Made by a program: the position numbers and the translations under genes | Part shown: positions 11,111 through 64,000 of the stretch, piece after piece | Numbering within the stretch: position 1 is the stretch's first letter | Layout: each line of letters opens with the position of its first letter | NCBI GenBank assembly: GCA_051294905.1 | Contig: CM119372.1 | Location: 32,490,001-32,554,000 of the forward strand | DNA length: 64,000 bases | Reading direction: 5' to 3' | Source of the DNA: Botryllus schlosseri | Taxonomy: Eukaryota | The notes under the pieces: model-generated | What the model was told of the DNA's origin: nothing | Seen by the model: the letters and a program-made list of their open reading frames with translations, nothing else | Database searches by the model: none

Positions 11111-14100
11111 TCAGAAACGTTTTGAGAAGCGAAGTTGGAACGAGGGACTGGTGCGACCAGACGGATTTCTTTCAACGCCCTGTATATTACAAATATTGTA
11201 TCATATTTATATTGAAATCCAGCAGCTACTGCTCCTTTTGTCTAAGACGAGTAGGAAATGTTTACATTTGATGTATAGTCATTTATCACTTACCGCATTT
11301 ATTCCGAGATTTCCTCCTACAAATTTCTGTTAAAAAGTAGCAAATGGTTTTGTGAGCGCATGATTCATTTCACAGGCACGTCAAGATACAATTACTCACT
11401 CGGGAATACTCGGCACTTGCACCACGACCTCCAAATGAATTGGCGTACTGGAAAGCAAATGCAACGTATTGTATTCATCGTTTAACGAATCCTCGGAGTT
11501 GCTCGAAGGTGGCTACTTCCGAAGTTGCAAGATATGTCTGACTATTGACACTACCAATTCGTGGAATCTCCGGAGGTAGGTTTAGCTTCCTCGTACATGG
11601 TTTATTTAGGGTTACCATACGTCTTCTTTTAAGAGGATTTGTCCTCTTTTTTGACTTTTTTAAACTGTCCTCGGAAGACGCCTAAATGTCCTCTTTTTTG
11701 ACATTATTGGTAAATGTACGTGGAAATTGGACTGAGATGAAGTAAATCAGCGCTCAATTGACGGTCCGACGGGCTTTTCGGGACTTGAGCCAGAAAACGA
11801 CCTTTTTTTAGTCAACCAACCACAAAATCGGGAAAAATTTACCACTTTTCCGTATTTTAATCCGGCATACTAGGTCTGAAAATTTTCAAGAAGTGTCCTC
11901 TTTTCAGTTTTCCAAGATATGATAACCCTAGTTTATTTAAAGATGTTGTTATCTCAATTTTACTTATAAAAGGGACTCCAACTTATCCAATCACTACTCT
12001 CTGCTTTTCAAATTAAAAATTGCAAAATGTATTTTTGCCTAAATCAGGTAAGTAGAAGTGGTGTTAGTTTAAAAAGCTAGGCATTAGAGCAATGTTCCCT
12101 CTAAGCTGCGCACCTGTGCAAATGCGCAATGCTGACACGGTCTATGCGCACAGAAAATCTAAATTGCGCACAAAAAATCCGAAGTGGTGACCTTTTTTTA
12201 GTCGTTACGCACTGTTGTCCAAGGGTCTGCGCAGTAAGTAGGTGAGTGTGCTTAGACTCGGCAGAAATTTGAGGGAACGTTGCCCTTGAGTGAGTGAGTA
12301 TGTCTACTTTGGTACTCCGAAAAATTAGAAGTACTTCGTTCCTGACCACCTCGGGGTAAGCGATGGCCTGATTAATTTATTATATATGGAAAACCATCAG
12401 GGAGGACACCTCGGGGTGAATTTGAAAGTGTTGAATATTTTCGGTAGTAAAGTGAGGACACATCTTGAAACAAGAGGCCACGCTTGTCACCATTGATGTG
12501 GTATGAGAGTGCGTTCGAGTTGCACCCCTAGTTCGGACATTACAACTTCAGCCAGGCAAGTCTTTTAAGGCCGCGTCACACATTCGATCGTGGTGGTAGT
12601 CTTTTTAATTACTTTACACTCACCGCCGAAGCACCAAGTTGTCCACCAAAAGCTCTCTGTAAAAAGAAGATCGGGATACTCGTATCGTATGCTATGATTA
12701 AATCGATTGTTGTTAATCTTACCCCGGAATATCCAGCGTTCATCCCGTATCCACCGTATGAGTTTCTATTCTGTTTGCAATAAGATAATACTTTGAATGA
12801 TTTCGAGTTGGGAATGAAAACTCATTCGTTTTTATAATCACTGGTATGTATATAAAATATATCGTATATATTTCGAATCGAAACTCGTTTCCACGTAGGA
12901 CCATGTTAATCTCTATTCACATCTCATTGCATCAGCAGTCATTGTAAATTGCATTACAGAGTGTTACTATACATTCATGTTGGCTACTATATTACGCGAC
13001 TCAAGATAGTAATTGTTTCTCACCCCAGATATTGACACTCTTCCATTATTTGGTAGCCTCTGAAATAGAAATAAAGATACTTTCAACAATTACTCTCATT
13101 GATGACTCGTTCCGTGTTTTCTGATGACCAACAATTTTGGAGACGACCATCACTGATTGATAGATGGTGTAGAGGTCTTTGCTTATAAATGCTTACATGC
13201 TCGTATCCTCCACGTAGCTGCCACGTGTTGCTGGGATGGTGGAAACTCTGAAACGACACAGTAAGTTACTGATTTAGTAGTGAGGCAGATTATATAATTG
13301 TAAACACTTACCCCGCCTAAAAAGGTGTTTCCATTCCTGCCGACACCCTGAAAATCGAGAATTAAAATTTAGTTTTATGTCGAAAGGTTATGCTGCATGA
13401 TATACCGTAGATCATCAATATATCATACCACTGATCTTGCTTTCATAAACTGATATATCCTCATTAACGATTATGCTAGCTATGCGTCTCGTATATGGAA
13501 TGTAACACAGTGGGTATTGAACACACCCGATCTCCTACATACCCGGTTCAAACGTCCATTAAACGTAGTTCCTGATCTATTATGTTCCTGAAATAAAACA
13601 GAAATCGTCAAAACCAGAATACTACCTGGCTAAATTCCGACTTTATCGGAGTCATAATTGAACGTTTTCTTAACATTGCAGCACAATTGTAAAGCGCTTA
13701 GAGTCAATAAAGCGGTCGGTAATGGGTTATTGCTACTTTTTCCGGGTACTCAAGTAGTTTTTTTCTGCATGTTGGGCGATCCCAGGAAGAAGTGATTGTC
13801 GTTAATAGACGATCACTGTTTACGTCTGTACATCTTCAAACCGTAACAATAAAGTGATCTGTTATCAATTCCCCATATATTCCATCATTAGTATTGCCTA
13901 GATTGCCATTCTTCAATAAAAGTTATACTTTTATTTAGCCGAGGCAGAACAGTAATAATATCAAGATCAAACGATATATTCGAAACACGTTTAGGTAGAT
14001 CTCTAAATCAGTCGACAGTAATTTTATAGATGCACCTTGAAACATATTCACAGAATGTTAATGTCCATCTTAGATGTCTTGAACAATTTTGAACGCGATT

Positions 14101-16113
14101 GTGATAGATCAAAGCTCCCTATTCCCATCCAACATATCAAATTGTTTTGGATTGCATGGAAATTGACAACAACAAAATTCACTACTTTTCAAAAATATGT
14201 CCATGATATGCAAGGATCACGATCAATTTGATCATTCACTTACGGCCATGCACCAGAGATATAGTTCCTTAAGGTTACACAATGTGATTGTTACTTCTGC
14301 ATATCATATAGCACATGTATAGACTAGAGCGAGGGTGTCAAACATATGGTCCGCCAGGCGATTTCATCCGGCCCGCCAAGCAATTCTGAGTAGATTGAAA
14401 AAAGTTGTATTTTCCAGCACATTTCTAACAAATGTTGAGATCTTATAGTAAGAAATATCTCCTGCAATACAGCAATGTCGAAATCACAAGACGCAATAAA
14501 ACTATCCGACACCGGTGCTTTGGTTTCACTCTAGTTACCATCAGAAACAAGTCGGCGACACTGACAGGCAATTCCGAAAACGCAAAAAAGTGAACATTAA
14601 CTTCCGATTTTTATGAAATATTAACAAAAAGGCAGAATATAACAGTTTTACAAAAGTATAATTAAATATTCTGTGGTCGCTCTGCGGTATCACTTCTGGC
14701 TCAAAAGATTCCCGGCCGCCAGCTAAATATTTATTTTGCCAACTTATGTTTTAGCGGTTAATAACTGTATTCAACCGGCCAATCATTGAGTATTTGCCAA
14801 TTCCGTTGTTGCGAATGATTCCATTGTTACAATAGAATAGAAATGATCCGCAATGTAATATATTATAATATTTTGTATATAGGTGAGATCAGTGGATATC
14901 AGTGGAGATCAGTGGTCTTCCAGGTGGTACGCGAGTATATTATACTTTTCTTTAGACCGATGGGAGTTGTTAGTTCAGGTGGGGTGGGTTTTTTAAAGCC
15001 GTCGTGGGTAGGGGCAATCCCACCAATGACGGCCTACGGGCAAGAGATATAGTCGTAAAGCATTGAGATTTTCACCTAATTAAATTCCGTTTTATTATAT
15101 TTGACCACAAGAATTCCAAATGGATCCAATACAGAAATCATATCCTGCGCCGTATAATGAGCATTTTATTCACGGTAGAAACATTTTTGACCGCCTTCGG
15201 CACGCGTAACTCATGTAGGTGGTAATACGCGAGCACTGCATAAAACCTAGAAATGGTTTAGGAAAAACCACTGGGTTAGATATTGAAGTATTCAAGCGAA
15301 AAACAAGGTCGTGGATTTTGAGGTAACACTTTCAAACCATTATACGGGTCCGGTTGTGAGCGATTTCAAGGTTCGAATCCGGCGCGTGTCGCAAGTTGAG
15401 TTTTACACCCCTGCTGTTTAGTGTCCATATTCCCTTACTTAGTAGCCTACTATACTTACAATGTTGCCTTCGACACTTCCACGGGCTTGTCGCTTCGTTC
15501 TGCGTCGTGGCTACAAAAGCAATCATAAATCTCGCGGTCATTGAATATAAAAAGGATATCAGGTTACCATAGTCGGTTCGCTATGCTCATCGTATCGCTG
15601 TTTGTCATCATCCGGCACTTCAAAGCGAGGTGTCTGCAACGATTTGCGAATCAAATTGGCGTCATACAGGAAAGATAATTCAGTTAAATGCGTCCCAGTC
15701 ACAAGGGTTGGTAACGGGGAGAACCGAAATAGCAACTGAGCGCAAATTGCCAATAAAGCGGCATACCAAATTCCACTTACCGATTTCAAAACGCAATTCA
15801 CGCCATTCCAGCAGCATTCGTGAGTCTTAAGGCACTTGTCAGCGGTGTCAACAGATTCTCCGGTGCAGAGGTCCACGCACGCATCTGCATACATATTTAA
15901 TTAGTGAAAGTAGACCACCAATGCTTCCAATACGAATTTGCAACATGGGAGTTACGACTCCTAAATGGACTGCTTACCTTCCATGTCGGTGGAGCAAATG
16001 CCTATATGGACAAGAACAAGTCTGTTCAACTCGCATCTTCGCAAAGGCAAAGTAGCAGCTTGGACTTGGAGCGCAGCAGCAAAGGCTAAAAGAGCAACTG
16101 TCGTCTTTATCAT
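11111..16113 (-). CDS. Gene A: 11-exon secreted precursor (224 aa) with signal peptide, 8-Cys domain, acidic linker, RTKR furin site and a Gly-rich cationic hymenoptaecin/attacin-like peptide
   Basis: Exons 15978-16113, 15781-15884, 15568-15633, 15460-15510, 13543-13587, 13312-13347, 13197-13247, 13024-13059, 12723-12770, 12624-12656, 11111-11179. All introns are GT..AG and exon sizes match gene B. Protein: MIKTTVALLAFAAALQVQA-ATLPLRRCELNRLVLVHIGICSTDMEDACVDLCTGESVDTADKCLKTHECCWNGVNCVLKSTPRFEVPDDDKQRYDEHSEPTMPRRRTKR-QARGSVEGNIEHNRSGTTFNGRLNRGVGRNGNTFLGGSFHHPSNTWQLRGGYEHRLPNNGRVSISGNRNSYGGYGMNAGYSGRAFGGQLGASAGVERNPSGRTSPSFQLRFSKRF*. AATAAA follows the stop. Confidence 0.85.
11607..11930 (+). 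mobile_element. TAGGGTTACCAT MITE in the last intron of gene A
   Basis: TAGGGTTACCATA...TATGATAACCCTA flanked by a GTTTATT direct repeat. Confidence 0.8.
12090..12282. mobile_element. Short CAATGTTCCCTCTAA hAT-type MITE
   Basis: Ends CAATGTTCCCTCTAA / TTTGAGGGAACGTTG. Same family as 63680-63858. Confidence 0.7.
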
Positions 16114-24070: not shown

Positions 24071-24396
24071 ATTTAAAAATACACCGAACTTGTGTGAACT
24101 TGGGCGTCTTCTTATTATTATCACAACTTGTTACCGCTGTCCTTTCTACCTCTATTCAGGACTATTCCACGTTGAAAAATACTCCCGTTCTTAATATCAC
24201 GCAAAACCAAAACCATTCGAGCAAATACAAGAAAATCCTAACATCGACCTTTTTACTCGTTAAAAAACCATTACAAATTGCATCATTTGTCATTTTCATA
24301 TATATATTTCATAAAACAAATGTGCTTCGAAATATTTCAACAATGATAGCAAAATATAGTTGTTTCATCGTCCATCTCTTTGTTTCAAGTTGACAT

Positions 24397-27300
24397 TTAT
24401 TTCCCGAAACGTTTCGAGAAGCGAAGTTGGAACGATGGACTGGTGCGACCATACGGATTTCTTTGAAGGCCCTGTGTTTAAAAATATTGCATCATTTGAT
24501 TTTGAAGTCAAAAGCACATGTAATTTTCGTTTTGTTGCGGCTAGTTTCAAAGCGTTCACATTAGGAGAGCTATTTGAGTATGTTTCCATGACACTATCAC
24601 CGATAAAAGTGATGCTGAGTCATCCCAATATTACATTCCGCTTTTTAAGAGCTGAATTCTAACGATTAGGTATAGTTCTGCCCCAAAACTGCTCAAGTAG
24701 ATGTATCCTAAGAACATATCTCAGTGATTAAGTTGTGAGTGGAATTTTCCTACTTGAGTACTCATCATGGTAAAGGATAGCCTCATTTATATAATAAAAC
24801 TGAGCCGATCAGGGACGTGACCACAATGACATTTTCAAAGTGAAAAACATTTTAGCAATTAAGTGCGATCGCAGACGGATACCTCGTGACACAAGAAATG
24901 AATATGCGGTTGCTACGTTACCATGGCAATATCGTTGGAAAAGGGCGCCTTCTGGCTACAACAATGTAGAATGTAAATTAATTCACACTTGTTTTTTTTA
25001 GGCAAAGACAGTGTCGATAACTACACATTCGGTCGTGGTTGTAATTCTGTCATACTTACCGCCGAGGCACCAAGTCGTCCGCCAAAGACTCTCTGTGAAA
25101 AAATATCGAGAAACTGGCATCGAAGGTATGATTCGAATATTATTAATCTTACCCCAGAATATCCAGCGTTCACCCCGTATCCACCGTATGAGTTTCTGTT
25201 CTGTTAGCAATAAGATAACAGTTTGGGTGAATTCGAGTTGGGTTTGAATTCATTCGTTCAGAATCACTGGTATGTATAGGCTATATAGAATATATTAAAT
25301 AAATTTTGAACATCTTTTACACGTTCAACTAGGGTTATAAAATGTTGAATCTCAATAAATCGGCGGTTATGCATTGTGCTATTCATCTAGCACTAGAGTG
25401 GAAACACATTCATGTGTTACGCGAGTTATGATAGAAATTATTTCTCACCCCAGAAATCGACGCTCTTCCATTATTTTGGAACCTCTGAAATACAAATAAA
25501 TAGATTTTTAATAATAATTCATGGTTTCCCTTTCCGCGTTTTCTGTGGTTTTAATTTTGGACACTATAATCACTGATTTGGAGCCGCTTGTGTATACACT
25601 TACGTGCTCGTATCCTCCACGTAGCTGCCATGCATTACTTGGATGATGGAAGCTCTGAAACGACCCAGTGACATATTGAATTACTTGTGAAACAGAGGAA
25701 TATAATTTCAACACTCACCCCTCCTACAAACGCGTTTCCATTCTTGCCGACACCCTAAGAAAGGAGAACTCAATTTTCTATTTGAAAGGGTATGCTGGTT
25801 AATGCAACCTAGCTGTTCCATATACCATACCAAAGATCTAGTATTTCTCAAAAGATTATTTTCAAAAACGCTATTATGGCATAGGATCTGGAATGTACCG
25901 GAGTGGGTACTGGTCAAGCTACATCCCATACCCAAAAATTAGAAATCCATTGTGTAAGTTATCTCTAAACTAGATCTTCTACATACCCGGTTCAAACGTC
26001 CATTGTACGTAGTTCCGTATCTATCGTGTTCCTGAAATAAAATAAAAATCATAAAGACTTGAATATTACTTCGTTTCATTTCCGCTTGATCGAAGTCTAA
26101 ACTGAACATTTGCTTAAAATTGCGCACAACTTATAAACTGTAAGAGGGTTTTTAATCGGTTGATAACGGGTGATTTCGACTTTTTCCGGCACTCACGTAG
26201 TATTTCGTACATCTCGGCCTATAGCAGGCAGGAATGAGCGATTTTGCTTTTATGAAGATAGAATAGACCAGTGGTTCCCAACGTGGGCGATATTGCCCCC
26301 CAGGGGGCGATTTGGCGGTCTAGGGGGCGAAAATAACGAATGGGGCGATAGGGGGGCGAAAATGGAAGAAGGGGGCGATGGGGGGCGAAAACAAAGAAGG
26401 GGGCGATAGGGGGGCGATGGCGCGTTAAAACGGCTATATTGGAGTCGGGACCGTAACTACCGCACCCCAAACCCCCCAATTGGGAGTGGGGGCCCGAAAT
26501 CGAAGGAAGCCCAAATTTATTTCGTGAATTAACATGAATGATAGAGTAATTTTTTAGAAAATCATGCGACTTTTTCAAAATTTTCGCGCTGTGCGTGATT
26601 TAATATCTTCATGTATCTGGATGTTGGGGTCCCCGTCATCCAACAAAAATACGCCTGATTTATGGAAATGGGAGACTTCGGCGTCGGCCATTACTGCGCC
26701 ACGACGCGCCAAGACATATGAAGTTGGAGGCCCTGTAACATGCGACTCCGAGAAGTGTGCCAGAACGATCAGCAGCGAGAAGACCTTGTCCGAAAGAAAT
26801 GCCCTTGTGCTGACCGAAAATATCGATATATATACATATATGTTTAGTTGTCTATAGGCGCCTCAATGGCTGGCGTCGAATGTTCCTGTCCTGGTGACCT
26901 TAACCCTACAGGACAAATTCCATTCCGCAAGGAAAATATTATTTGACAGTAAAGAAATACCAATATGAAATCATGTGCGTCTTTTAGTTTGGTACGTTTT
27001 GGCGATTTCCATATCTTCTGATATAGCAGATATAGGAGGTCACGAAATAGCATCATGTAAAGAAGTCAATATAACAACGATTCCGCCGAAGATGTTTAAT
27101 TATTATTTAGGAGTCCTACCTTTTCCGACATACCACATCGACCATATTGACCGATTCAAACAGGAATTATATAAATTTATCGCGCTTCGCTCGTTCAGGC
27201 GAAATACGGTGACTCACCAAACAGTACATGAAATAGGGTATAGCTGATATGTAGCGACAAAAAGCCCACTGGCTGAGGGGGGTCTGGGGTTTGGTTTATC

Positions 27301-29928
27301 ACCAAAGACCAACGTTTTTTTTGGGGAGGCTGACGAATACTGTTTTTCGGTTCCCAATATCTGGGGGGCGATGATCGGTGTGGAGCTTCAAAAGGGGGCG
27401 ATGAGTCGAAAAAGGTTGGGAACCACTGGAATAGACGATCAGTAAACTTCAAAACCGTGACACTCAAGTACTATATGCTCCTGACTCCCTCAATATTCCG
27501 TAATTCGCTTTGATGGATTCACATCATTTATTTGAAAATGGTGCCTCCGTTTACACAGGCAGAACTGTAATTTCGGGATCTATGTATTCGAAAGTGCTGC
27601 TGTCGATCTCTCGGCCATTATACAACTAACTTACATATATGCATATTGCAGCATTGGCTAGAGCTTTTCTGGTCGTCCAAGAGTTAGAGGTATTAGTCAC
27701 TTTAGAGACTGGCTTATTCTATTAATATTCATCTAAATCTTTCTCTTATCACCCATCATTTCAAGCCATTTTTGATTGCCTGAAAATCTATTATTAGGCT
27801 ACAATCACATATTCCAGAAATTTCACCAAGACGTGCACGATATGAATGATCATGATCATTCACTTCCGCTAATACCCAGAGGTGGTCAAAGTAGCCAAGA
27901 AAGCTACTCAAGTAGAAGTAGAAGTAGCGACGAAAAAATCTACTCAAGTACGAGTAGAAGTACTTCTTCAATGAGTCACCTAAAACTACTTGAAGTAGCA
28001 GTGGAATTTACTGACTTTAAATCTACTCAAGTAAGTAAGTAGTTTTGAAAACAGTCTTAATTCGTTCGCATGGACACTCAAAAGATGCGAATTGAGCTAT
28101 GCGGCAGGTGCAGAGAGCTTGATTCGTAGTGATGCATCCCAGGAGGTATCAATTTTCGACTGAATAAGCAATGTTTTGCATCATGGGATGCGAATTATAG
28201 TATTGATATGAAAATGCTATACTAACCCTCTGTTTACTAGAAGACCCCGTTTTTAGAGAATATCATGGCATGGCGCCATACCCCATATTATAAGGTGCCA
28301 AGTTTAGGCGAAGAGCAATACGTAGAAGTTGTATCGGATAGGGTTTCATCATTTTGCGCGATTAGTATACGTTATTAACAAATATTGTGGATCGTAAAAG
28401 TTATATTTAGTGTAGCTTTATTTTCGAAAAATAGAGGCATTACTACACTTGCTTTTGTGCTTCAACATGTATGTCATGCAGACAAAAGAACTGAAAGTAA
28501 TTAGAACTCAAAGTATGATACTCGTAATTGAAAGTGAAATACAAATACCACATCTAAAAAGTGGAAAATATACTTCATGTCTTTTGCCCATAAAGCTTCA
28601 AAGGTGATATGCTAAAAACAGGTGCAACGTTCAAAAAAGCTGGATTTTTCAGATTAGCAGTAAACGATTAGCTAGATTACAATATGATAGGTAATTGCTA
28701 GATTGCGAAACGGTAGTTTCAAACGTTATGATGGGCCATATTTACCGTGATGAAATAATTAATATGGGCGAAAATGCGGTGTGAGAGCAATCAAGCAATC
28801 CGGTACCTAAATTATATTCACTGATACTTTCATGAAAACATATTTGTCAGTCCATCACAACTATGCGCGAAGTGCAACAAAATTTATGAGCTTTACTTGA
28901 CTTTTATGAATATTAAATGTTGGTACTCCGTGAAAACAGCCCCGAAATTCCTCAGGCTATGTTTCGTATTGGGGGATTAAACTACTTCTACTTGACAAAC
29001 TGAAAATAGCGAAAAGTAAGTAAGTAGATCACAAAATTTTACGAAGTAGAAGTAGAAGTAGAGAAAATCAGATCTACTTGAGTAAGTACCAGAAGTAGAG
29101 GAACACTACTTGAGTACTTCCAAAAAGTAGAAGTGCTTCGTTACTGACCACCTCTGCTAATACCTTATAGTTATTGAACGTCACAGAATGCGATTATGAC
29201 TTCAGCATATACTGCACCTGTATAGCACTATAGCCCATCCACATTCCCATATAATAACTGATTTACTTACAATGCTGCCTTCAACACTTCCCCGGGCTTG
29301 GCGTTTTGCTCTACGTCGTGGCTGGAATGGCAATCATATCATAAATGCGACGGTTATTTAATACGAAAAGATGTGGTGTTACCATGGTCGGTTCGCTATG
29401 CGCCACGTCCTGTTGGTTGTCATCCTTAACCACTGGGAAGCGAGGTATCTGCAATGAATTTCGAGTTTAATTGGCGTAATACAGGAAGGTAAATTACGCT
29501 CACTGCGTCCAATTGACAATGGCGTGTAGCGGATAAATTCAAAATAGCAACTAAGCGGAGATTGGTAAATACGAAGCATATCATATTCCACTTACCGACT
29601 TCAAAATGCAACTCACACCATTCCAGCAGCATTCGTGAGTCGTAGAGCATTTATCGGCCGTTTCAACGAATTCTCCAGTGCAGAGATCCACGCACGTATC
29701 TGCATACATATTTAATTCATGAAACTAGCGTGACAATGTCAAAATTTCGAATTTGTAACTGAGAAGTGATAACTCTAAAATAGATTGTTTACCTTCGATG
29801 TCGGTGGAGCAAACACCGATATGGACAAGAACAAGTCTGTTCAACTCGCATCTTCGCAAAGGCAAGGTAGTGGCTTGAATCTGGAGCACAGCAGCAAAAG
29901 CTAAAAAAACAATTGCCATCTTCATCAT
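24397..29928 (-). CDS. Gene B: 11-exon secreted precursor (226 aa), paralog of gene A, with C-terminal amidation signal F-G-K
   Basis: Exons 29793-29928, 29596-29699, 29383-29448, 29271-29321, 25987-26031, 25719-25754, 25604-25654, 25449-25484, 25153-25200, 25060-25092, 24397-24471; all introns GT..AG. Protein: MMKMAIVFLAFAAVLQIQA-TTLPLRRCELNRLVLVHIGVCSTDIEDTCVDLCTGEFVETADKCSTTHECCWNGVSCILKSIPRFPVVKDDNQQDVAHSEPTMPRRRAKR-QARGSVEGSIEHDRYGTTYNGRLNRGVGKNGNAFVGGSFHHPSNAWQLRGGYEHRFQNNGRASISGNRNSYGGYGVNAGYSGRVFGGRLGASAGLQRNPYGRTSPSFQLRFSKRFGK*. Exons are clearly better conserved than introns relative to gene A. Confidence 0.85.
26269..27428 (+). mobile_element. Second copy of the CAGTGGTTCCCAAC composite MITE (intron 4 of gene B)
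   Basis: Full TIRs and perfect TSD GAATAGAC. Contains the nested element at the same ATTGGAGT site as the 3842 copy. Confidence 0.85.
27877..29156. mobile_element. hAT-type element with AGTAGA/TACTCAAGTA subterminal repeats (intron 4 of gene B)
   Basis: CAGAGGTGGTCA...TGACCACCTCTG, perfect TSD CTAATACC. Confidence 0.85.
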
Positions 29929-30009
29929 GATGTATGCGCGATTCTACCTCTTTGTTCCGAGATATTCTTGACAAATTTCAATTTAGAGAACTCACGGATT
30001 GGACAGATA

Positions 30010-30035
30010 TTATATACTAATTTACGGGGAAATTA
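30010..30035 (-). promoter_or_regulatory. TATA box plus kappaB-like motif upstream of gene B
   Basis: TATATAA (minus strand) at 30010-30016 and GGGGAAATTA at 30026-30035, same spacing as in gene A. Confidence 0.45.
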
Positions 30036-32857: not shown

Positions 32858-35800
32858 ATGAAAGTCTTATTCATAACATTAACGATTGTTGCAATCGGCA
32901 CGATTGATGCCGCGACCATCTCACTAAATCACTGCGAGGTGGCCAAACTCATCATTGCGTACAGCGGGATATGTTCAATGAATAGTTCAGGTGGGTAAAT
33001 GTATTGTTCACCGCAAACTGGTCGAAAACTATGTGCGAAGGGTCTATTGAATATATAGAAAGCTCATAGCCATATGACCTATTGAACGTATTTTGATTTT
33101 GCCTCATATTTAGATCCTTGTGAAGACTACTGCACTGGGGAAATTATAGAAACTGAAATCGACTGCTCGATAAGAGACGAATGCTGCTGGACTGGAGAGG
33201 AATGCATAATGAAAGAGGTGCGATCGTTACCCTAACACTCGCTCTGAATCACCAATCTATGGCGTCTATACTACAAAATCCTCACGTGCGTCTCGACTCG
33301 CGTGGTCGATTTATGTGCCTATGTTTGAAACCCCATAGTTAACGTAGGTGTTCAGCCCTACGATTGTCAATTGTCTCATTTCATAGACACTAGCGCTGTA
33401 TATGATATTTTGACGGCGCCTTTTCTCCAACGGCTTCAGAATGCCCCATGTTATTTGCAATGGACGTGGAAAAACTGATGTCGAAATAAATAGCTCGAAA
33501 TCCAAACGCTGATATACGTATTTCACTACAGATTCCGGAACCAAGCTATGAGGATATCACGCCAGAGGAAGACTCAAACTCGGAAATGCAGGTAACCAAA
33601 AGATATATTTTATCTGCGATCGGCAGGCAATTATTAGTGTTTTCCGATCGAGCTCCCAAAGTAGTGGTGTTTATATTGGATTCAACGAATCAACTCATGA
33701 GTCGGTGTGCTGCTAATCAGTTCACGAGCAGCCGGCTATAAACGATTCACATTCATCACCAAATAGATCAATTGATATGTAGGGTTACCATACGTCCTCT
33801 TTTAAGAGGATTTGTCCTCTTTTTTGACTTTTTTTTTTTAAGTGTCCTCGGAGGACGCCCTTTTGTCCTATTTTTTGAGATTTTGTCCTCTTTTTTGAAA
33901 ATTTAGGTCACATTTAGAGCAAAATGCGAGTGAGATGCCGTAAATTAGCACAGGAATGACGCTCCGGCGGTTATTTCGGAGTAAAAAAACGGTGATTTGA
34001 GGTCTGAGCGAAAAGTTGACCTTTTTTTTTTTTAGTCAACCGATCACAAAGTGGGAAAAATTCACCGATTTTTGAGAATTCTTCTCCGGTTTTGCGAGCC
34101 TCAAATTTCTGAAAAAGTGTCCTCTTTTTAGATTTCCAAAATATGGTAAGCCTAATTGATATGTGACTTGCTACTTCATTAGATGCGTTTGCTCGTAATT
34201 GTATGTACGACTCGTGTTGTCTAATTTACATTATTCTGACAAGCAGATCCTTAATAGTAAGTATACTTATCAGATTGCGCTCTACAAATCAAATGACACT
34301 TTTCAATCTACTTCGTTATCGCGAACAATTGGCTCTTCTTATTTATTCTAATTATACACGAGATGGATCTCTTTCAAAGTTCCGATATCGGTGTTAATAG
34401 TCGGTCAGGGTGGCTGTATTTTGTCGCATATATTGTCCCTTACATATTTATCTACTTGCTGCTATGTATGCGTAAGCAATGAAATGCCTATCCTAAGCAA
34501 ACCTTGCTGCATCTTCCCCGTCGTTCCCTTCGACAAATTCTTCTCACTCTCCCAGAGACGGTCAATGGGGGAGTATTTACGTTTTTTGGAGTACTCGGGT
34601 AGGTTTTCCCTCAAGTGGTCATATTTTTAGACTACTTAAACTTTTACATTTTTAGCAAAAATACTTTTGAGAATTCAGATTTTTTAAAGTATAAAATAGT
34701 TTTAGGATAAGATTGCATCACTTTTAAAAGTGAGATTTTCGAAAAAACGGCGTGAAATAGGTTTTGTATTACAATAACGAAAGATATTTGCGAAGATACT
34801 ATCGATTTGCAGAGTAATTAATTAGTCTGCGTACGTCACGGAAAAAACATATTGCGATTTCAAAATAAGCCAGCTCCCCTTCACTGCGAAAGGCATGCTA
34901 CCACTCGGCGAAATCTACGTTTGGAAACTAATTACTTGAGTACTTCTTTAACCTTACTTTTCTACTTGCACTCGCACTGGTTTTGACATTTCTTGGAATC
35001 CGCTACTTTTACTGATAATTGCGTCGAAATTTTCGCCGTTACGTATACATCTACTTGACTAGCAACGCTGACTACTTTGATCACCTATGCTTTTTCTATT
35101 AGGATCAAGCTACCGTTGCGCCTATGGAGGAAAATATGCCAGAGGAGACTGTGAGTAAATGATCTGTAGCGAATCTCACGTTCCTTCTATCACTATCGTG
35201 CGCTTACAATCCAGACGTTGAAAAGGTCAAAGCGCCGGGCAGGAGGTGGCTTCGAAGCGGACGTGGTAAGATATCCATTTGCAATGTGAATGCACGAGCA
35301 CTTGTATTCTATAGAAAATATTATGTATCCACCATCAGGGATAATAACAACGAGTCGTGCATTCGAATCTTGGTCCATACTATACATAGTATTTTTCAAG
35401 TCGACAACATAACATATGGTATTTTCCGGTATCGAAACTACACCCAATACAGTTTAGGAGCGTGAAATATTATCATGTTAAAATGCTTGGTGCTTACTCC
35501 AGAAATCTGGAAGTCCCGAACCTATTCTTATTCCATTATCGCGGTCATCCAAACACCAAACGAAAGACGTTACATCCTGATATGAGCAATTTGAGAGAGG
35601 TTGGTAGCGCGCGACTGTCAGCGTTAAATAAACATCGTTGTATCATAATTTTCGATTGTCAAATACGGATAACTGATGTGGTATTCGTTGTGGTCACATG
35701 GTGTAACTTTGAAGCATTGTGTCCCGTTATTGTGTAATCTGTGCATCCCAAACATAAATGCTGATAGAAGCGAACGATATGGAGTCCCAGTCGTCATGTT

Positions 35801-38800
35801 GTCGAACTTGCCGGCCTTATTGGGCAAAGATGCTATTGATATTTGATACGGATCAGAAAATAAGGAAAGCCGAATTCCTAACTTTCCATTATCATTATGA
35901 CATATTTGTAAATAAAAAATTAATAATGAAACTACAAATTGAAGCAGTATTCTAAATTGTATTCATTTATCGTGATACAGGAAAGATTTCACTCAGTCGT
36001 TATGACAATCTCTCTCATAAAGGTGATAGAAACACATCCCAAAACCACTTTGTACTTTTCGAAAAATATGAAAAAAGCAATTAGTTTTGCCTAAATCACT
36101 TCTAAGTCGAAGTGGATGTAGTCACAAAATATAACCATTTGATTAATTATGTGCAAGTAGACAAACCTTATTGGGTACTCCGAAAATGTAGTACGTCGTT
36201 GCTATTCACGTCTGCATAGCCTACATAGCTAGACGTAATACATTGCATACATTTTGTCGACCTTAATGCAATATAATTCCGTTATTTCAGAAAAAAGACA
36301 AAAATGGCATAACAGTGTCAGGAGGAATTAACCAGGTATAAAATAAAATTATTCCTTGCTCCTAAATTTCTACCGTCAATACGAACGGTTCGAAGTAGCG
36401 GCTTATGATATCCAACGGCCATACAGTATATTGTCAGTTTGTAAATCTGACTCATGTATACAGGACGTTGGAAGAAACGGCAACGTCCAGGCAGATGGGG
36501 TAAGTGGATTGTCGCTTTTGATCGAATAGTCTACATTTGAGGTGAACAAACCGTGACCCCGGGGAAGGTTACAAGTAGCCCAAGCGGTATTTCTCGCAAT
36601 GACTTATTTTATCATCTTAATCGCCTACATAATTCATGGCGAACTTACATTTCGATAAATTGGCTTTTCTTTTCACGCTATGTCTTTTACTATATAGAAG
36701 TGGTTTTATATATGCTCAATATAATTTTATTGCATCACAATGCTAAATTTTACGCATCGTACTTCCATATTGCTATGTCCACATCAATTCTAATCAATCG
36801 CACTCGTGCTGGAAGAGTCAGTCACAGTCAGCTAGCAATTTTCTTACTTACGTCATTGATGTCCATCTGATATTAGAGATTCGGGCAAAACGCAGTTAGC
36901 AGTGGAATATCTTCCCCAAATTTGGACGTGTGACCTCTTTTGTTGGATGTTTGACAGTGTGGCAATTTGCCAGATGCAATTGTAAAATACCCACTTATGT
37001 AGTTGATGATCCACGTTACAACAACTGCTTAACTATTTAAAGATTAAGCACACCCGACCGCCGAGGCTGCGAGACATACAAAACTAACTTACAGCACGAT
37101 CCATCACAACAAGGGTTGTACCTAAGTCACAAGGTTACGAGTCACAAGTCAATCTCACTTTTATAGTTTTGACTCGAGTCGAGCCAAATCAAGTCATTTT
37201 CAATTCATCGCCGAGTCAAGTCCAAATCCAAGGCAAAGAGTAGTAGAGGGTCGAGTATGAGTCTTAGCGTTGTGACTCGAGTCCTAGTCCAAGTCATTGT
37301 GTTCACTGTACAGTTTTCAGTTCAATCCGGTTCATTCCATTTTTTACAATTCTGCTCGAGCGATATAGAATGGCTCGCATTCAAAATATCGTAATTTTCC
37401 TCAGTCCTAACAGTTTCTGGCCCTATTTGCCAAGTATCAGGACAGATACATCAAATACCAATCATTCGGTAACTTTACTATTCTTCGAAGTTACAATGAA
37501 ATGTCTGTTTTGGCCGCCGTAGTCTCGATTCATATGGCTTGGGTAGACTCCTGCACAAAGGGTCAAGTAAAGCTTGAGTCAATACACAAATTGACTCGAG
37601 TCGAGTAATTTTACGCCTTGAAAAAATTGACTCGAGTAAAGTTGAGTCACCAAAAAATCGTAATAGGAAAAAAGTGAAAACTGCTAAACATTGTCGATTA
37701 TACAGTTGAAGTTTGGTACATGCCAACATTTTCAACCCGCGATTAAAATATACTACGATCATTGTTTTCATTCTATTATCATTGTCTCCATTACAGACCT
37801 ACCATCATCCCAGTGGAGCTTACGACGCCAACGTCGGATATCGGCATGTAGGTATTGAGAGTTGACTGATATGGCGAATGCTATTGATACTTGAGATATT
37901 TGTTTCCAGAACATACCAGGAGGTCACATACGCGCAGGGGCGGTGAGTATTCGCTGAAATCTAGATTCATTGTTTAGGCGGTTCATAGTGTATTTTGAGA
38001 TGAGAGCTGTCGTAGCAATATAAATCCTAAAATGTTTCTTGAGTCGTTTGCTTGCTTTATCGCTAATTATATAATCTTAAGTCATAGTAGATGCACTCAC
38101 ATGATCGATATCTAATTGAATAGCGGTCCTTTCCGATTTTGATAATATCGATGGGTTATAATTTTCATCTGAACAAGTCACACACAATGTACAATGCGAT
38201 AAGACACAGCTATCATCTGAACCAGTCGCACACAATGTACAATGCGATAAGACACAGCTAGCCTAATAATGAGGCAATTTGGTTACTTTAGTTCTAGTAT
38301 ACAACCATTATTTTAGTTAATTTTAGATAATTAATGAGTTGAATTGCCGACGATACTTGCGAAATCTATCGACGATCGTGTTTCTAGTCTCATGAAGAGG
38401 AAGTAGCCTGTAAGAATTCCTGCGTCCGGCCATGGATAATTTAAGCAGACTGCCACGGTCGGTCAGTCCGGGTGGAAATAATTTTATGGCTCAAGTAAAT
38501 TTAGGGCTTAACGCTAAACCGACTAATTATTTCCTATCATTATGTTGTGATGAAGGATGTGGTTTGCATGCAGTAGGCTACTCGTCTTTATCCGGCCTAA
38601 GGGATAGTGGTAATTAATAGGTTATATAGTTTGTATCTATTTTCATTCATTGTTTCACTGTTTTTCTTCGAACTTAGGAATACAATAGTTTCTCTGTGAT
38701 ATTGAAAGAATATCAGAAACATTTCATCAACGTCTCTATTGGGGTCGGTGCATTTCACTAAATTCGGTTACTGGCCGTCTGAATTAGGTTCAAATTTTGA

Positions 38801-39325
38801 CGAACATATGGAATTGCAGTGTGATATTTTCTGAAAAGTACAGCAGAATGGTGAGAATTGGCTTACGAAATAAAGCAAGTTCTATCACACTGACTGTACC
38901 TTGATTATACCCGGTGCTGCCAATGCGTATAATTCCTATTATTTGCCATCCGATATCCACCATCTGGTGGATATGACTATTTCCATCACAAGAATGATGC
39001 ATATTTATCAAATCAATAGGCCTACCTATGCTTAGCTGACAATAATGCGAGAGGACTAGATATCTGTCTTGGAAAAATTTAGCAGCACTGTAGGAGGATG
39101 TAATGCGGAGGCAACTCCTGCAATAAGCGCCGGTGAAACTAACAAAAATACTGGATAATTGGTGTGCAATTTATTACTTACCAGATCTTCCTGGTAGCTG
39201 TGTTTCCTTGTGGTTTGTGTGGGCTGATCAGGACGTCCTTTTTGCAGGGAGTTTCCCGTGATCGATGGGGTCAAAGAGACCAGCGTATCAGCATCGGTAT
39301 CTCCAGACGTTGGGGACGGAAATAG
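32858..39325 (+). CDS. Gene C: 10-exon secreted precursor (about 212 aa), divergent paralog with a shorter mature peptide and W-G-R-K amidation signal
   Basis: Exons 32858-32990, 33114-33217, 33532-33591, 35103-35150, 35215-35265, 36291-36335, 36464-36499, 37797-37847, 37910-37942, 39248-39325; introns GT..AG. Protein: MKVLFITLTIVAIGTIDA-ATISLNHCEVAKLIIAYSGICSMNSSDPCEDYCTGEIIETEIDCSIRDECCWTGEECIMKEIPEPSYEDITPEEDSNSEMQDQATVAPMEENMPEETTLKRSKR-RAGGGFEADVKKDKNGITVSGGINQDVGRNGNVQADGTYHHPSGAYDANVGYRHNIPGGHIRAGAGVSRDRWGQRDQRISIGISRRWGRK*. AATAAA at 39386. Cys spacing and the 104/51/45/36/51/33-nt exon sizes match genes A and B. Confidence 0.8.
33780..34154 (+). mobile_element. TAGGGTTACCAT MITE in intron 3 of gene C
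   Basis: TAGGGTTACCATA...TATGGTAAGCCTA flanked by an ATTGATATG direct repeat. Absent at the paralogous site in gene D. Confidence 0.85.
34553..35090. mobile_element. Old degenerate relative of the CAGAGGTGGTCA element, shared by genes C and D (about 59223-59785)
   Basis: cagagacggtcaa...actactttgatcacctatg with tacttgagta motifs. Present in both duplicated blocks. Confidence 0.45.
37110..37650. mobile_element. GACTCGAGTC-motif hAT-type MITE, degenerate
   Basis: Aligns with 50844-51334 (gagtcacaagtcaatctcactttt...gactcgagtc). Confidence 0.6.
38165..38260. repeat. 48-bp tandem duplication in the last intron of gene C
   Basis: tcatctgaacaagtcacacacaatgtacaatgcgataagacacagcta twice, with 2 mismatches. 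Confidence 0.85.
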
Positions 39326-52412: not shown

Positions 52413-54338
52413 ATCTAACGTATAATGAATGTTATTTATTTTTCGGAAGCACGTTATTCAATACATATTGCTAAATACACATGGAAAATCGGTATTGAAA
52501 TTGACAAAACAATGAAAGTTACTCATAAATACACACGACAATAGTCTAGCAGGCACGATGAACGTAAATAGCCTCAGGGACGGGGATTGGTGCGTCTATA
52601 AAAAGGATGACTACACTACTACGGTATCATATGAAACTCTGCTCGCGGAACGAATTCTAGTAGTTTCGATCAGTATTGATTTATAAAAAGCTGCATTGGA
52701 AAAATCGAAAATGACGATTGCATTGACTAGCTTTGTCGCTCTGCTGATTCGGTTATTTCCAAGACTCTCGGACTATAAGTAGGCCAAGAGGAGTTAATCC
52801 ACCCACGTTTTATTTCGAGAATATTCTTGATATATGAATGCGATTTGGCGTAGCCATTGTATATGGCTATAAGTGCTTTATGCCTGGTGTGGATGGGCCA
52901 ACGTATATCCGTTCATTAATTATTCATAACTATATACTTATTAAATGTCTAATTACCGATTGGGATCTGGCTAGGTCGGGTCACCATTTCAAGTTGGCTA
53001 TAGTTCTCATCAAAGTGGACTGACAAAATCGGTTAATCTTAATAAGGCTATGCGCATTCCCTGTGGCAACGAATGAAATGCCAGTTCTTCTGAAAAAACA
53101 TAGGATATATGGCTCAACATTGAGAAGGATGTTTTATGCAATTTATCATATTATGTCCTTGGGACGCTATGTTTGTGCTCAGCGCCACTGGATATCGCAT
53201 ATTAGTCGCTGGATACATGTATAAGGATTTTTTGAATCATGTTATTAAGTCCCGTATGCCATTGTGTCGCATGTTCACGTGACCACGGACAATAATGATT
53301 ATACAAACGATATCACCCATCCATCCACACTGAAATTTACCTGTCATCTTTTCGTTCTCTCTGTTGACGGAGCAATCTAAAATCTACGAAAATGAGAGTC
53401 TTATTCATAACATTAACGATTGTTGCAATCGACACGATTGATGCCGCAACTATCTCACTAAATCACTGCGAGGTAGCCAAACTCATCATTGCGTACAACG
53501 GGATATGTCCAATGAATAGTTCAGGTGGGTAAATGTATTATGTTCACCGCGTACCGGTTGAAAACTATGTGTGGAGGGTCTATTGAATATATAAAAAGCT
53601 CATAGCCATATGACCTATTGAACGTATTTTGATTTTGCCTCATAATTAGATCCTTGTGAAGACTACTGCACTGGGGAAATTATAGAAACTGAAATCGACT
53701 GCTCGATAAGAGACGAATGCTGCTGGACTGGAGAGGAATGCATAATGACAGAGGTGCGATCGTTACCCTAACACTCGCTCTGAATCACCAATCTATGGCG
53801 TCTATACTACAAAATCCTCATGTGCGTCTCGACTCGCGTGGTCGATCTATGTGCCTATGTTTGAAACCCCATAGTTAACGTACGTGTTCAGCCCTACGAT
53901 TGTGAATTGCCGCATTTCATGGAAACTGGCGTTGTATATGATATTTTGGCGGCGCTTTTTTGCCCACGGCTTCAGAATGCCCCATTTTATTTGTAATGGA
54001 CGTGGAAAAACAGATGTCGAAATAAATATCGCGAAATCCAAACGCTGATATACGTATTTCACTATAGATTCCGGAACCAAGATACGAGGATACTACGCCA
54101 GAGGAAGACTCAAACTCGGAAATGCAGGTAACCAAAAGATGTATTTTTATCTGCGATCGGCAGGCAAATATTAGACTCAGGAGAATTAGTGTTTTCCGAT
54201 CGAGCTCCCAAAGTAGTTGTGTTTGTATTGGATTCAATGAATCAACTCATGAGTCGGTATGTTGCTAATCAGTTCGCGAGCAGCCGGCTATAAACGATTC
54301 ACATTCATCACCAAATAGATAAATTAATATGTGACTTG

Positions 54339-54487
54339 TGTAATAATAGCTGCTACTTTACTAAGCTAGCAACAGACTGCAGAGTACATGTTTATTACTC
54401 GCCGGTATACAACACACTCATTGATGAAACAAGGATGCAAGCTGAAGCCTTGGAAAACATAAACGGAAATAATCAAATATTACAACA
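54339..54487 (-). repeat. 3' LTR
   Basis: TGTAATAATAGC...CAAATATTACAACA on the + strand, adjacent to the PPT. Confidence 0.9.
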
Positions 54488-54550
54488 TCTTCCTTCCAAT
54501 AGTTTAGAAGTAAGAATGGCACAGTGACTACAATACTACACAAAGAAAAG

Positions 54551-57094
54551 TCAGTATTGAAGCCGATTCGGAGCTTTGATAAGCCTGCCGGATCTCGTGG
54601 TAATTGCACGAGTGCTGCCATCACTGATTGCTGTGGCATCACCAATATCCATGTCGTTTGATTTGGATCGGATCGGAGTCTTGATAAGTCTGCAAGGTCT
54701 TGCGGTAATTGCTCGAGCGCCGTCATTAGCCATTGAAGACGCATCACCAATATCCATGTCGTTTGTTTTCGTTTGCTCGGCATCGTCGAGTGTCGCTCGT
54801 TTTGCTGCGCTGGTTTCACGTAGATGGATTCTGTTACGTACCAATTCATTACCCTTTTCAGTTAGTACCCTGTACGAACGTTCATTTTCTCTAGTCACCA
54901 CTTTAGCTGGGGACCATATTTTATCATATTTGTTGAATACACGAATCTGTTGTCCCTCTATCAATGGAGGGAGAGCCTTGCTGCGAATGTCAGAATAATC
55001 CTTCTGTTTCTGCAGTCGAGCTTGCACATGTTCTTTATAGATCTCTGGTTTGTTGCTGATACCGTGACTTGGCATAGCTGTAGGAATCGGTCTACCAAAC
55101 ATCAGCTCGGCTGGGCTAGGTAGAACACTGTCCAGTGGAGTTGCTCTAACATTTAATAGTGCCATATGGATATCTTCTCCCCCTTTCATGCATTTGCGAA
55201 GAATTGGTTTCAGGTATCCAATTTGTCGTTCGATGAACCCGTTTGATTTTGGAAAACGGGGCGAGGATTTGGTATGTTTGACACCCCACATATGACAAAA
55301 TTTGTCAAACTTGCTGAGATAGCATGGACCATTGTCGGAGACGATTTCTTGCGGCACGCCAAAAAGGCTAAAACTTTCTTTGACAACTTCGATTACGTCT
55401 TCGCTGGTGCTTGAAGACAGTTTTTTCACAATCGGGAATCGACTGTAGTAGTCTGAAATTATAATGAAATGTTTACCTTGAATTTCAAAAAGGTCTGTTC
55501 CAAGCTTGGTCCATGGCATATTTGGTCGCTCATGACTGATAAGCGGTTCTCTTGTTTGTCGCGGCAGAGCCTCCTGACATAATTCACAGTTTTTGCAGAG
55601 ATTTTCAATGTCCTTGTATAGCCCTGGCCAATAGACACTTTCCCGGCTCAGAGCACGCGTTTTCTCAATCCCTTGATGACCTGCATGAAGCTGCAACAGT
55701 ATGTCATTCTGCATGGTTTCGGGAATAATGACTTGTCGACCTTTGAAGATGATGCCATCTTCAACTGCTAGTTCGTCCCTGTAAGTCCAAAAGCTTCTCA
55801 GTTCATTTGGGATGGACTTGATATCTTCTGGCCAGCCAATGAAAATACATTCAGATAGTTTGTGGAGGACGTGGTCCTTGGTTGTCTCAGTTCTCAGATC
55901 TTTTCTCTTTTCTTCTGAAAAGTGGATCATGTCTATGTCGGTGTTTTCGATTGACCACATTGAGATTTCTTCCACATGCGAGTCAAGGTCAATATATCCA
56001 GCATTGGCTGTATTAGGCATTCTTGACAGGGTGTCTGCCAGAGTCATTTCATTGCCAGGTCTGTATTTAACATCAAAGTCATATCCTTGCACTTTCAACA
56101 TCATTCTTTGCAGCCTTGGAGGTGCGACCCGTAGAGGTTTTTTAAAGATCATTTCCAGAGGTTTGTGATCTGTGACCACGGTGAAGTATCGACCATAAAG
56201 ATAATGGTGGAATCTCTGTATACCACATATAACGGCAAGGCATTCCCTTTCTATATTGCTGTAGTTTGCTTGAGACGTCGTGAGCGTTTTACTGGCAAAT
56301 GAAATGGGTGCCCCGTCCTGAATCAAGGCTGAGCCCATTCCTTTCATCGAGGCGTCCACTTCCAATGTGACAGGACGTTGCGGGTCATAATATCTCAATG
56401 CCATGCAGTCGGAGATACCTTTTTTCATTTCGTTGAAGGCTTTCTCTTGGTCAGTATCCCAGGTGAATGGCGTATCCTTTTTAGTCAAATCTCTCAGAAT
56501 GGAAGAGCTAACCGAAAAGTTTGGGAGATGATTAGCGAGAAAGTTGGTCATCCCAAGGAACCTTTGGAGATCTAGCTTGGTTGTTGGTGACGGCATTCTC
56601 AATATGTCTCCAACCTTTTTTGGATCAGGGTATACTCCATTGTCGGTGTAAATGCGTCCAAAGAATGAGATTCTTCTTGACTTCACGATACATTTACTCT
56701 GATTAAATTTCAAACCTTCTTGCATTGCAACTTTCACGAATCTCAGGACACGTTCATCGTGTTCGACTTCTGTGCTGCCGTAGATGACTATGTCATCCGA
56801 GATTCCGGCGCAACCGTCACATTTTTCTAGAATGCTGTCCATTCGGGCTTGAAATATATCCTGACTTACTGATAGCCCGAAAGGTAGTCTCATGAAGCAA
56901 TATCGACCGAATGGAGTCCTGAATGTGGTTAGTTCTTGAGACTCCTTGGCCAGTTTCACACTCCAATACCCCGCCTTCGCATCCAGTTTGGTAAAGAACT
57001 TGGCTTTGCATAGGGATGGAGTTATTTCTTCCACCGTGGGAATATTGTGCGGATATCGTTTCAGTGCCTTGTTCAGTTGTGTGGGTCGAGGCAC
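54551..57094 (-). CDS. pol: Pol part of the retrotransposon: reverse transcriptase, RNase H, integrase
   Basis: KLDAKAGYW, RLPFGLS, GISDDIVIYG, VDAS, TDHKPL, HAGHQG...CKNCELC (HHCC), GTDLF, VSDNGP, NGFIER. Confidence 0.92.
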   Translation of the reverse strand: MPRPTQLNKALKRYPHNIPTVEEITPSLCKAKFFTKLDAKAGYWSVKLAKESQELTTFRTPFGRYCFMRLPFGLSVSQDIFQARMDSILEKCDGCAGISDDIVIYGSTEVEHDERVLRFVKVAMQEGLKFNQSKCIVKSRRISFFGRIYTDNGVYPDPKKVGDILRMPSPTTKLDLQRFLGMTNFLANHLPNFSVSSSILRDLTKKDTPFTWDTDQEKAFNEMKKGISDCMALRYYDPQRPVTLEVDASMKGMGSALIQDGAPISFASKTLTTSQANYSNIERECLAVICGIQRFHHYLYGRYFTVVTDHKPLEMIFKKPLRVAPPRLQRMMLKVQGYDFDVKYRPGNEMTLADTLSRMPNTANAGYIDLDSHVEEISMWSIENTDIDMIHFSEEKRKDLRTETTKDHVLHKLSECIFIGWPEDIKSIPNELRSFWTYRDELAVEDGIIFKGRQVIIPETMQNDILLQLHAGHQGIEKTRALSRESVYWPGLYKDIENLCKNCELCQEALPRQTREPLISHERPNMPWTKLGTDLFEIQGKHFIIISDYYSRFPIVKKLSSSTSEDVIEVVKESFSLFGVPQEIVSDNGPCYLSKFDKFCHMWGVKHTKSSPRFPKSNGFIERQIGYLKPILRKCMKGGEDIHMALLNVRATPLDSVLPSPAELMFGRPIPTAMPSHGISNKPEIYKEHVQARLQKQKDYSDIRSKALPPLIEGQQIRVFNKYDKIWSPAKVVTRENERSYRVLTEKGNELVRNRIHLRETSAAKRATLDDAEQTKTNDMDIGDASSMANDGARAITARPCRLIKTPIRSKSNDMDIGDATAISDGSTRAITTRSGRLIKAPNRLQY

Positions 57095-58635: not shown

Positions 58636-58710
58636 TGTAGGTAAGGTCTTTGAAAAATGTAGGAGACAAAACGTACCTTTTCAACATAGACGCCAACACC
58701 GCTGCCACCA

Positions 58711-58854
58711 TGTAATAATAGCTGCTTCTTTACTAAGCTAGCAACAGACTGCAGAGTACATGTTTATTACTCGCCGGTATACAACACACTCATTGATGAA
58801 ACAAGGATGCAAGCTGAAGCCTTGGAAAACATAAACGGAAATAATCAAATATTA
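58711..58854 (-). repeat. 5' LTR (outer terminal bases missing)
   Basis: Near-identical to 54339-54482 and directly followed on the minus strand by the PBS. Confidence 0.9.
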
Positions 58855-63858: not shown

Positions 63859-64000
63859 CATACAGTAGGCCTATATTGTCAGTTTGTAAATCTGACTCAT
63901 CTATACAGGACGTTGGAAGAAACGGCATTGTCCAGGCAGATGGGGTAAGTGGATTGTCGCTTTTGATCGAATAGTCTATATTTGAAGTGAACAAACCGTG

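Follow-up and report, generated by a model that had tools for sequence, protein, structure and literature searches.

Gene B is one of four paralogous genes in a 64-kb window of Botryllus schlosseri DNA (64,000 nucleotides of contig CM119372.1; eukaryotic, about 40% GC and repeat-rich). Together with gene A, on the same minus strand, and genes C and D, on the plus strand, it makes up a real, expressed ascidian gene family which apparently has not been described so far. All four genes share a hydrophobic N-terminus, an eight-cysteine (8-Cys) domain spread over exons 1 and 2, an acidic spacer and an RxKR site; the signal peptides of the family were assigned by eye. To judge from their sequences, genes A, B and C probably encode secreted host-defence precursors, the tail of which is predicted to work as an antibacterial effector like the attacin/diptericin/hymenoptaecin class of insects. 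Common descent with that class has a little less than an even chance.

The initial annotation had described a mature peptide resembling hymenoptaecin and attacin at 24397..29321. A six-frame search recovered all the motifs on which this was based. On the minus strand RAKR is found at 29312 with QARGSV immediately after it at 29300, the C-terminal stretch starts at 24468, and the gene C motif (DKNGITVSGGIN) is at 36297 on the plus strand. The two motif ends of gene B fall inside the annotated range, but the gene itself starts outside it, at 29928. Their separation of 4.9 kb represents exon-intron structure, not one open reading frame: gene B runs from 29928 to 24397 in 11 exons with a single open frame of 226 codons, and six phase-0 micro-exons of 33-51 nt, all with canonical AG/GT sites, connect the two ends. 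When the sense strands were filtered for phase-0 AG/GT micro-exons, seven candidates were obtained in B (six of them used) and eight in A, compared to none on the antisense strands of A and B and one in about 46 kb of non-gene strands. The exons of A and B are 73-94% identical, and in most of them the differences are mainly at third codon positions.

The B precursor consists of a signal peptide, the 8-Cys domain (spacing C-x12-C-x7-C-x3-C-x10-C-x5-CC-x5-C across exons 1 and 2), the acidic spacer, the furin site and a 117-residue Cys-free peptide rich in Gly, Asn and Arg, with an isoelectric point (pI) of about 11. The C-terminal stretch quoted in the initial annotation is real, but it is gene A that ends at its Phe; in gene B the Phe is followed by Gly-Lys and a stop codon at 24397-24399, an amidation-type ending. 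Upstream of gene B a kappaB-like 9-mer stands close to a TATA box (Table 1), and the promoter of gene A has the same arrangement, with the 9-mer at 16203-16211. The 9-mer has 14 sites in the window, equivalent to 0.07 expected per 300 nt, and the pair counts as one ancestral site; the motif was chosen post hoc. The long intron 4 of gene B is filled by an inverted-end element of about 1.2 kb (26264-27429), copies of which are present near 844-1541, 3837-4981, 20502-20812 and 61317-63366.

For RNA, four of 24 runs (X1, X5, X21 and X24, of which X1 and X5 are presumed to be RNA) were compared with positions 24200-39600 at 90% likeness. The joint 25200/25449, with the CT..AC borders of a minus-strand intron, was present in X1 and X5 contigs and in 125 X21 reads. 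No read of X24 contained it, and as X21 and X24 carry the same study label, expression of gene B is sample-dependent. An X5 contig of 812 nt matches 24248-24470 with one difference in 223 letters and is B-type; the remaining B joints do not appear among the matches listed. At least seven C/D-type joints do. The joint 35264/36463 occurred in all four runs, so that the DKNG exon of gene C, the splice sites of which are canonical but weak, is skipped or unlike in the C/D-type transcripts listed. Since an X5 contig of 707 nt is the exact sum of the gene D exon lengths without exon 5, an abundant C/D transcript in these runs is without the DKNG exon and its tail is shifted. A short repeat in an intron of gene C (38142-38208) had a very high RNA depth, with poly-T loose ends in X21, and looks like the 3' end of some abundant transcript with a repeat, originating elsewhere.

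The mature tails measure 142 residues in A, 117 in B and 89 in C, with 20-21% Gly, no Cys and a pI of 11.6, 11.3 and 10.3, respectively; when the homolog from Styela clava described below is included, Gly ranges over 18-21% and pI over 9.9-11.6. Predicted cleavage sites lie downstream of the hydrophobic N-terminus at RAKR in B, RTKR in A, RSKR in C and RVRR in S. clava. The hydrophobic moment calculated for a beta-strand was reached by 0, 2, 6 and 0 of 1000 shuffles for A, B, C and Styela, and the helical moment was not above that of shuffles in any of the four. The internal micro-exons alternate between 15-17 and 11-12 residues. Counting back from the exon end, each has hydrophobic or small residues at positions 3, 5 and 7 and mostly polar ones at 2, 4 and 6. 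We infer that every phase-0 micro-exon encodes one turn and one amphipathic strand in a fixed register, which would give gene C 6 strands, gene B 8 and gene A 10. With each exon pair gained or lost a hairpin should then be added or removed, frame and sidedness being unchanged, because each such exon would be a complete turn plus strand. The extra pair of gene A resembles the pair preceding it (z about 6.5, with a DNA identity of about 50%) and the second exon pair of gene C resembles the second and third pairs of B (z 5-6), and hairpins therefore appear to have come and gone by whole exon pairs.

A profile built from five exon-2 sequences was searched against 1.84 billion representatives. Four matches were returned: a Logan protein similar in sequence to a Cys-domain exon of contig C5 (see below), S. 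clava LOC120338146, a fern repeat protein, which was taken as chance, and a 44-aa ENA fragment. LOC120338146 (XP_077973411.1, 195 aa; XP_039262017.1, 141 aa) is annotated as uncharacterized and is the only named homolog. In the 195-aa form all eight Cys and the spacer are present, Gln comes after RVRR, and the tail, 83 residues rich in Gly and Arg, has Phe as its last residue. Aligned with it, mature B scored 85 and mature A 84, where shuffles gave about 40 +/- 7 (39 +/- 7 for B alone) and none of 2000 reached the score. Word searches with the full and the mature Styela protein found its own cluster alone (one candidate with the mature part), and a search of longer proteins for an exon 1 homolog gave 21 candidates, none of which scored. 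The ESM Atlas search with exon 2 returned no usable match, a PDB sequence search a single match at E 2.3, and no Pfam family covers the 8-Cys domain; a trefoil or lysozyme-like reading of it, a resemblance without Pfam support, was discarded.

The assembly contains a cellulose-synthase exon (PF03552 above its cut-off; E 1.6e-22 to solved cellulose synthases), and among animals cellulose synthase is confined to tunicates according to the available part of PMC6339383. The host is an ascidian because it has both this exon and the Styela homolog, and the hymenopteran host which would have reduced the initial annotation to known hymenoptaecin genes is ruled out. Two cellulose-synthase-like exons were found 59 kb apart on contig C9 (about 15.03 and 15.09 Mb). 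Tunicates are usually credited with one cellulose synthase gene, and the two exons may be a duplication or a retained haplotype. A search of the assembly for COX1 gave no match.

The hymenoptaecin motifs cited in the initial annotation are correct, as judged from the 93-aa mature peptide printed in PMC12234437 and the fragments, including the RxRR site, printed in PMC12840399. Compared by eye, hymenoptaecin shares with A, and likewise with B, 4 identities in the first 6 residues and 10 in the last 21, ungapped and in register, and the KNG turn is at residue 29 in B and at residue 31 in the bee peptide. A composition null predicts 2.2 identities in 21 and gives P values of 9e-6 (10/21) and 3e-4 (4/6), or 3.5e-3 and 5e-3 when the per-site chance is doubled for strand patterning; these P values are not homology E-values, hymenoptaecin having been picked post hoc among many known peptides, which is the first of the points to be set against a relationship. 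An ESM Atlas search with the Styela tail, a query outside the calibration of that search, which excludes protein parts, listed as named families gloverin/Attacin_C (0.90), Attacin_C/N (0.89) and Diptericin-D (0.84). The claimed resemblance to attacin and hymenoptaecin is supported by the terminal matches and by the named families; they did not establish homology over convergence.

The remaining points that weigh against a functional and evolutionary link with the insect class are of several kinds. The unanchored bound for 10/21 is just 0.015, and the hymenoptaecin-like terminal motifs are absent from the S. clava homolog and from gene C, where the DKNG-GGxN match requires a 2-residue gap and is located at the first turn, not the second. 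Mature C compared with S. clava was non-significant, 455 of 2000 shuffles reaching its score. The insect ESM matches share 152, 140 and 133 of 256 features, and nine of ten same-family matches reach 170; 23 of the 30 ESM matches are unnamed clusters, and the three of these that were listed are Nucleocytoviricota proteins of about 70 aa with higher scores, 0.91-0.93. Attacin profiles, the first check proposed in the initial annotation, were not matched in the Pfam scans, which covered the last exon of B and the S. clava protein in place of the spliced A, B and C peptides: no family was found for the B exon, and none of the attacin class for S. clava, full length or mature, the full-length protein giving unrelated rows only, below threshold. 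A six-frame scan of the genome with Attacin_C (PF03769) did not indicate the locus, and micro-exons blunt such scans. The second check, superposition of AlphaFold models, failed on model quality. Predicted confidence (pLDDT) was 46 for the mature peptide alone and 40 at full length (60-70 in the Cys domain, 28-36 over the tail), and no beta-meander model of sufficient quality was obtained. Searches with this poor model (best Z 5.0, no Foldseek E below 0.001) and a homotrimer prediction (0.73, compared with 0.60 for a control) were uninformative. The kappaB-like site beside a TATA box was absent from the C and D promoters in the motif scan, and reads at 90% likeness may mix A with B. To our knowledge the pro-regions of the insect peptides are without an 8-Cys domain. 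Finally, activity is established for the bee peptide, and the ascidian peptides are known here from genes and transcripts alone.

Several other explanations were considered. The terminal likeness would be due to convergence if a tunicate-born antibacterial beta-meander had had furin release, a Gln start, Gly/Asn turns, alternating strands and an aromatic C-terminus imposed on it by the same membrane target. We regard this as unlikely, but it agrees with the lack of a Pfam match, with insect ESM matches that share fewer than 170 features and are outscored by unnamed viral proteins, and with the failure of the best motifs to be kept within ascidians. The tunicate-type 8-Cys domain and the ease with which an exon-per-strand gene can grow from one duplicated unit are also in its favour, as is the lack of a homolog outside ascidians in either the Cys-domain profile search or the mature-part word search. 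It is harder to reconcile with two termini in exact register (joint P near 1e-5 even with the doubled null), with named ESM families that all three belong to one insect superfamily, or with six predicted strands in the Styela peptide, equal to the by-eye count for hymenoptaecin. A non-immune structural protein is a distinctly improbable reading, in which the Gly/Arg/Tyr-rich tail would self-assemble as a cross-beta fibre, as tunic or adhesive matrix or in cellulose binding, with the Cys domain serving in storage or cross-linking. Gly-rich, aromatic, cationic beta repeats do occur in secreted structural proteins too, and expression differed strongly between samples. The strict one-face hydrophobic register, the amidation-type ends, rapid paralog divergence, decay of the D tail and attacin-class ESM neighbours all favour a defence effector instead.

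The defence effector might act without a pore of its own, its last strand and aromatic end mimicking the beta-signal of outer-membrane proteins and jamming BamA of BAM, the beta-barrel assembly machinery. The A and Styela peptides do finish with an alternating strand and a free Phe, the accessible text of bioRxiv 10.64898/2026.09.25.754295 counts mimicry of the beta-signal among known antibiotic mechanisms, and glycine-rich insect peptides are said in part of PMC11180110 to inhibit outer-membrane protein synthesis. In B and C, however, the aromatic residue is followed by Gly-Lys(Arg), from which an amide and not a free carboxylate is predicted, and we hold BAM inhibition to be quite improbable. 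Less credible again is horizontal transfer of the tail from a giant virus or bacterium with later insertion of introns. The top ESM matches, Nucleocytoviricota clusters of about 70 aa at 0.91-0.93 with 166-177 shared features, speak for it, and ascidians hold other transferred genes according to the part of PMC6339383 available. On the other side, an ESM row from another domain is, by the search tool's own caution, no sign of transfer, and no relative was found in viral contigs, PHROGs or prokaryote genomes. Of 23 stretches of viral contigs found with the mature Styela part none was confirmed; patterns for the C-terminal motif and the hairpin consensus gave no match in these contigs, and PHROGs gave none. 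The prokaryote scan with the same query produced 387 stretches, one of them confirmed and then rejected as a wrong-frame reading over a longer open reading frame. A neuropeptide or hormone precursor, from which B would end in Arg-Phe-amide, can be given hardly any weight: signal, furin site and amidation-type end would suit it, but there are no repeated short peptides between dibasic sites, the amidation signal is absent from A and S. clava, and the predicted product is a beta-meander of 83-142 residues.

If the tail is indeed an attacin-like effector, furin-type cleavage would release it, and furin has been reported in Botryllus morula-cell granules (PMC9966394, in the portion available). The N-terminal Gln of the A and B tails would cyclise to pyroglutamate, and B and C would be trimmed and amidated at the C-terminal aromatic residue. 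During storage the tail would be neutralised by the acidic spacer and perhaps also by the Cys domain. On Gram-negative outer membranes its 6, 8 or 10 strands would fold up as an amphipathic antiparallel sheet, and such sheets would oligomerise to form a barrel-like pore, in line with models of insect attacins and diptericins. Tentatively, the ascidian genes may be chordate members of the superfamily, in which case the class either predates the protostome-deuterostome split or moved between lineages, perhaps via giant viruses, and strand-per-micro-exon coding would yield 6-, 8- and 10-strand variants that may set pore size.

Table 1. Features of the paralog cluster in the window (positions are those of the window)
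Feature	Position	Strand	Comment
Gene B promoter: kappaB-like 9-mer (30026-30034), with TATA box (30010-30016) about 10 nt downstream of it	30010..30034	-	Motif picked post hoc, weak
Gene B exon 1: signal peptide and first 2 Cys of 8-Cys domain	29793..29928	-	Homologous to S. clava N-terminus
Gene B exon 2: remaining 6 Cys of 8-Cys domain	29596..29699	-	46% identical to S. clava
Gene B exon 3: acidic spacer	29383..29448	-	
Gene B exon 4: furin-type RAKR site and first strand of mature peptide, Gln start	29271..29321	-	
Gene B micro-exon 5: 15 aa, phase 0	25987..26031	-	Kept in A; no RNA joint among matches listed
Gene B micro-exon 6: 12 aa, KNG turn	25719..25754	-	Micro-exon scan and open model
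Gene B micro-exon 7: 17 aa	25604..25654	-	Micro-exon scan and open model
Gene B micro-exon 8: 12 aa	25449..25484	-	Micro-exon scan; RNA joint 25200/25449
Gene B micro-exon 9: 16 aa	25153..25200	-	Micro-exon scan; RNA joint 25200/25449
Gene B micro-exon 10: 11 aa	25060..25092	-	Micro-exon scan and open model
Gene B last coding exon: final turn and strand, Phe-Gly-Lys-stop	24397..24471	-	X5 contig matches 24248-24470, 1 difference
Gene A: 13 exons, 251 aa, 142-aa mature peptide of 10 predicted strands, ends at Phe	11111..16113	-	Open model
Gene A extra exon pair	11400-11447 and 11294-11326	-	
Gene C: 10 exons, 212 aa, 89-aa mature peptide of 6 predicted strands	32858..39325	+	Open model; C/D-type RNA joints
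Gene C DKNG exon	36291-36335	+	
Gene C last exon: ends Trp-Gly-Arg-Lys-stop	39248-39325	+	
Gene D: 89-93% copy of C, continues beyond window end	53392..64000	+	Intact signal, Cys domain, spacer and furin site
Gypsy-type long terminal repeat (LTR) retrotransposon in gene D intron	54339..58861	-	151-nt LTR match, 98% identical

The tail of gene D is degenerate: exon 60982-61028 has a GC donor, an exon of 35 nt shifts the frame, and the last exon contains a stop when read in the frame of gene C. The C region (32084-39462) and the D region (52615 onward) are 87-97% identical, which fits both a tandem duplication and two haplotypes in tandem. In the Gypsy element in gene D, gag-protease (535 aa) and pol (850 aa) are both open but differ in reading frame. 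When the 495.5-Mb assembly was searched, exon 2 had 5 matches, the last exon 2 and the Styela homolog 4, every one inside the cluster but for a distant Cys-domain exon on contig C5. At about 10947860-10948305 (+) of C5 there is a further gene, which starts like a signal peptide and has its cysteines in the same pattern; Gly-rich tail exons were not found within 11.7 kb downstream of it. That the Cys domain may act by itself is suggested by this gene, by the first half of D, which is intact, and by the Styela form of 141 aa. A search of 20 kb upstream of the window and about 29 kb downstream of it revealed no paralog exons other than those of the tail of D itself. The downstream DNA contains frames of 303 and 726 aa resembling a long interspersed nuclear element (zinc knuckle; endonuclease-like start). 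Elsewhere in the window, 18189-19142 is a tandem array of 106-bp and 65-bp units with its second half inverted relative to the first, and 41089-42276 has two open frames which by eye resemble fragments of hAT-type DNA transposon proteins.

Reviews, in the portions available, treat attacin-class peptides as insect-specific, with their fold and mechanism so far no more than predictions. A family in ascidians with the same precursor logic would be a second, distant lineage in which to find the critical residues and the strand number, and the natural series of 6, 8 and 10 predicted strands makes barrel stoichiometry directly testable. If the family is homologous to the insect class, the origin of that class moves to the bilaterian ancestor or transfer is implied; if convergent, the same design arose twice. 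Because their micro-exons are of 33-51 nt, exon-wise searches miss such genes, and more of them may therefore be hidden in other invertebrate genomes.

Among known systems the nearest is LOC120338146, which has the signal, eight Cys, acidic spacer, furin-type site followed by Gln, and Cys-free Gly/Arg-rich beta-periodic tail ending in Phe of A and B, but six predicted strands (83 aa) and neither the RGS start nor the QRxPxGRxSP motif. Apis hymenoptaecin, which is released after an RxRR site, shares with A and B a site of this type ahead of the mature peptide, the Gln start, the KNG turn, the lack of Cys and about 20% Gly. It differs in being an insect peptide of demonstrated activity, with six strands (counted by eye) compared to 8 and 10 and a middle part that aligns loosely, and we know of no 8-Cys domain in it. 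The likeness of mature peptides claimed in the title of the initial annotation is thus partly borne out, but that title omits the 8-Cys domain and the strand-per-exon build. Attacin, diptericin, gloverin and prolixicin (PF03769, PF03768, PF10793) have in common with the ascidian family a signal, an RxxR processing site and a Gly-rich Cys-free mature domain with a predicted antiparallel sheet; their pro-region is short or Pro-rich in place of a disulfide domain, whereas the chordate genes have a predicted strand per exon and no Pfam match. A furin site, an N-terminal Gln and oligomeric pores, the last predicted and not solved even in insects, are described for attacins and diptericins in the parts available of PMC7924397, PMC12940664, PMC10690985 and bioRxiv 10.1101/2022.12.23.521774. 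A literature search on non-insect attacin-like proteins, with full texts and most subscription journals outside its scope, found none in tunicates, and the ascidian peptide review PMC10608444, in its available text, has no occurrence of attacin. The known ascidian peptides (styelins, clavanins, halocidin, dicynthaurin, plicatamide, botryllin) are also made as secreted precursors, but are short and mostly helical according to the same text. Rusticalin resembles the present family in combining a Cys-rich part at the N-terminus with a C-terminal domain of antibacterial type; it has two repeats of Cx6Cx6-7Cx8Cx7CC and an MD peptidase domain, whereas here the spacing is different and there is no peptidase.

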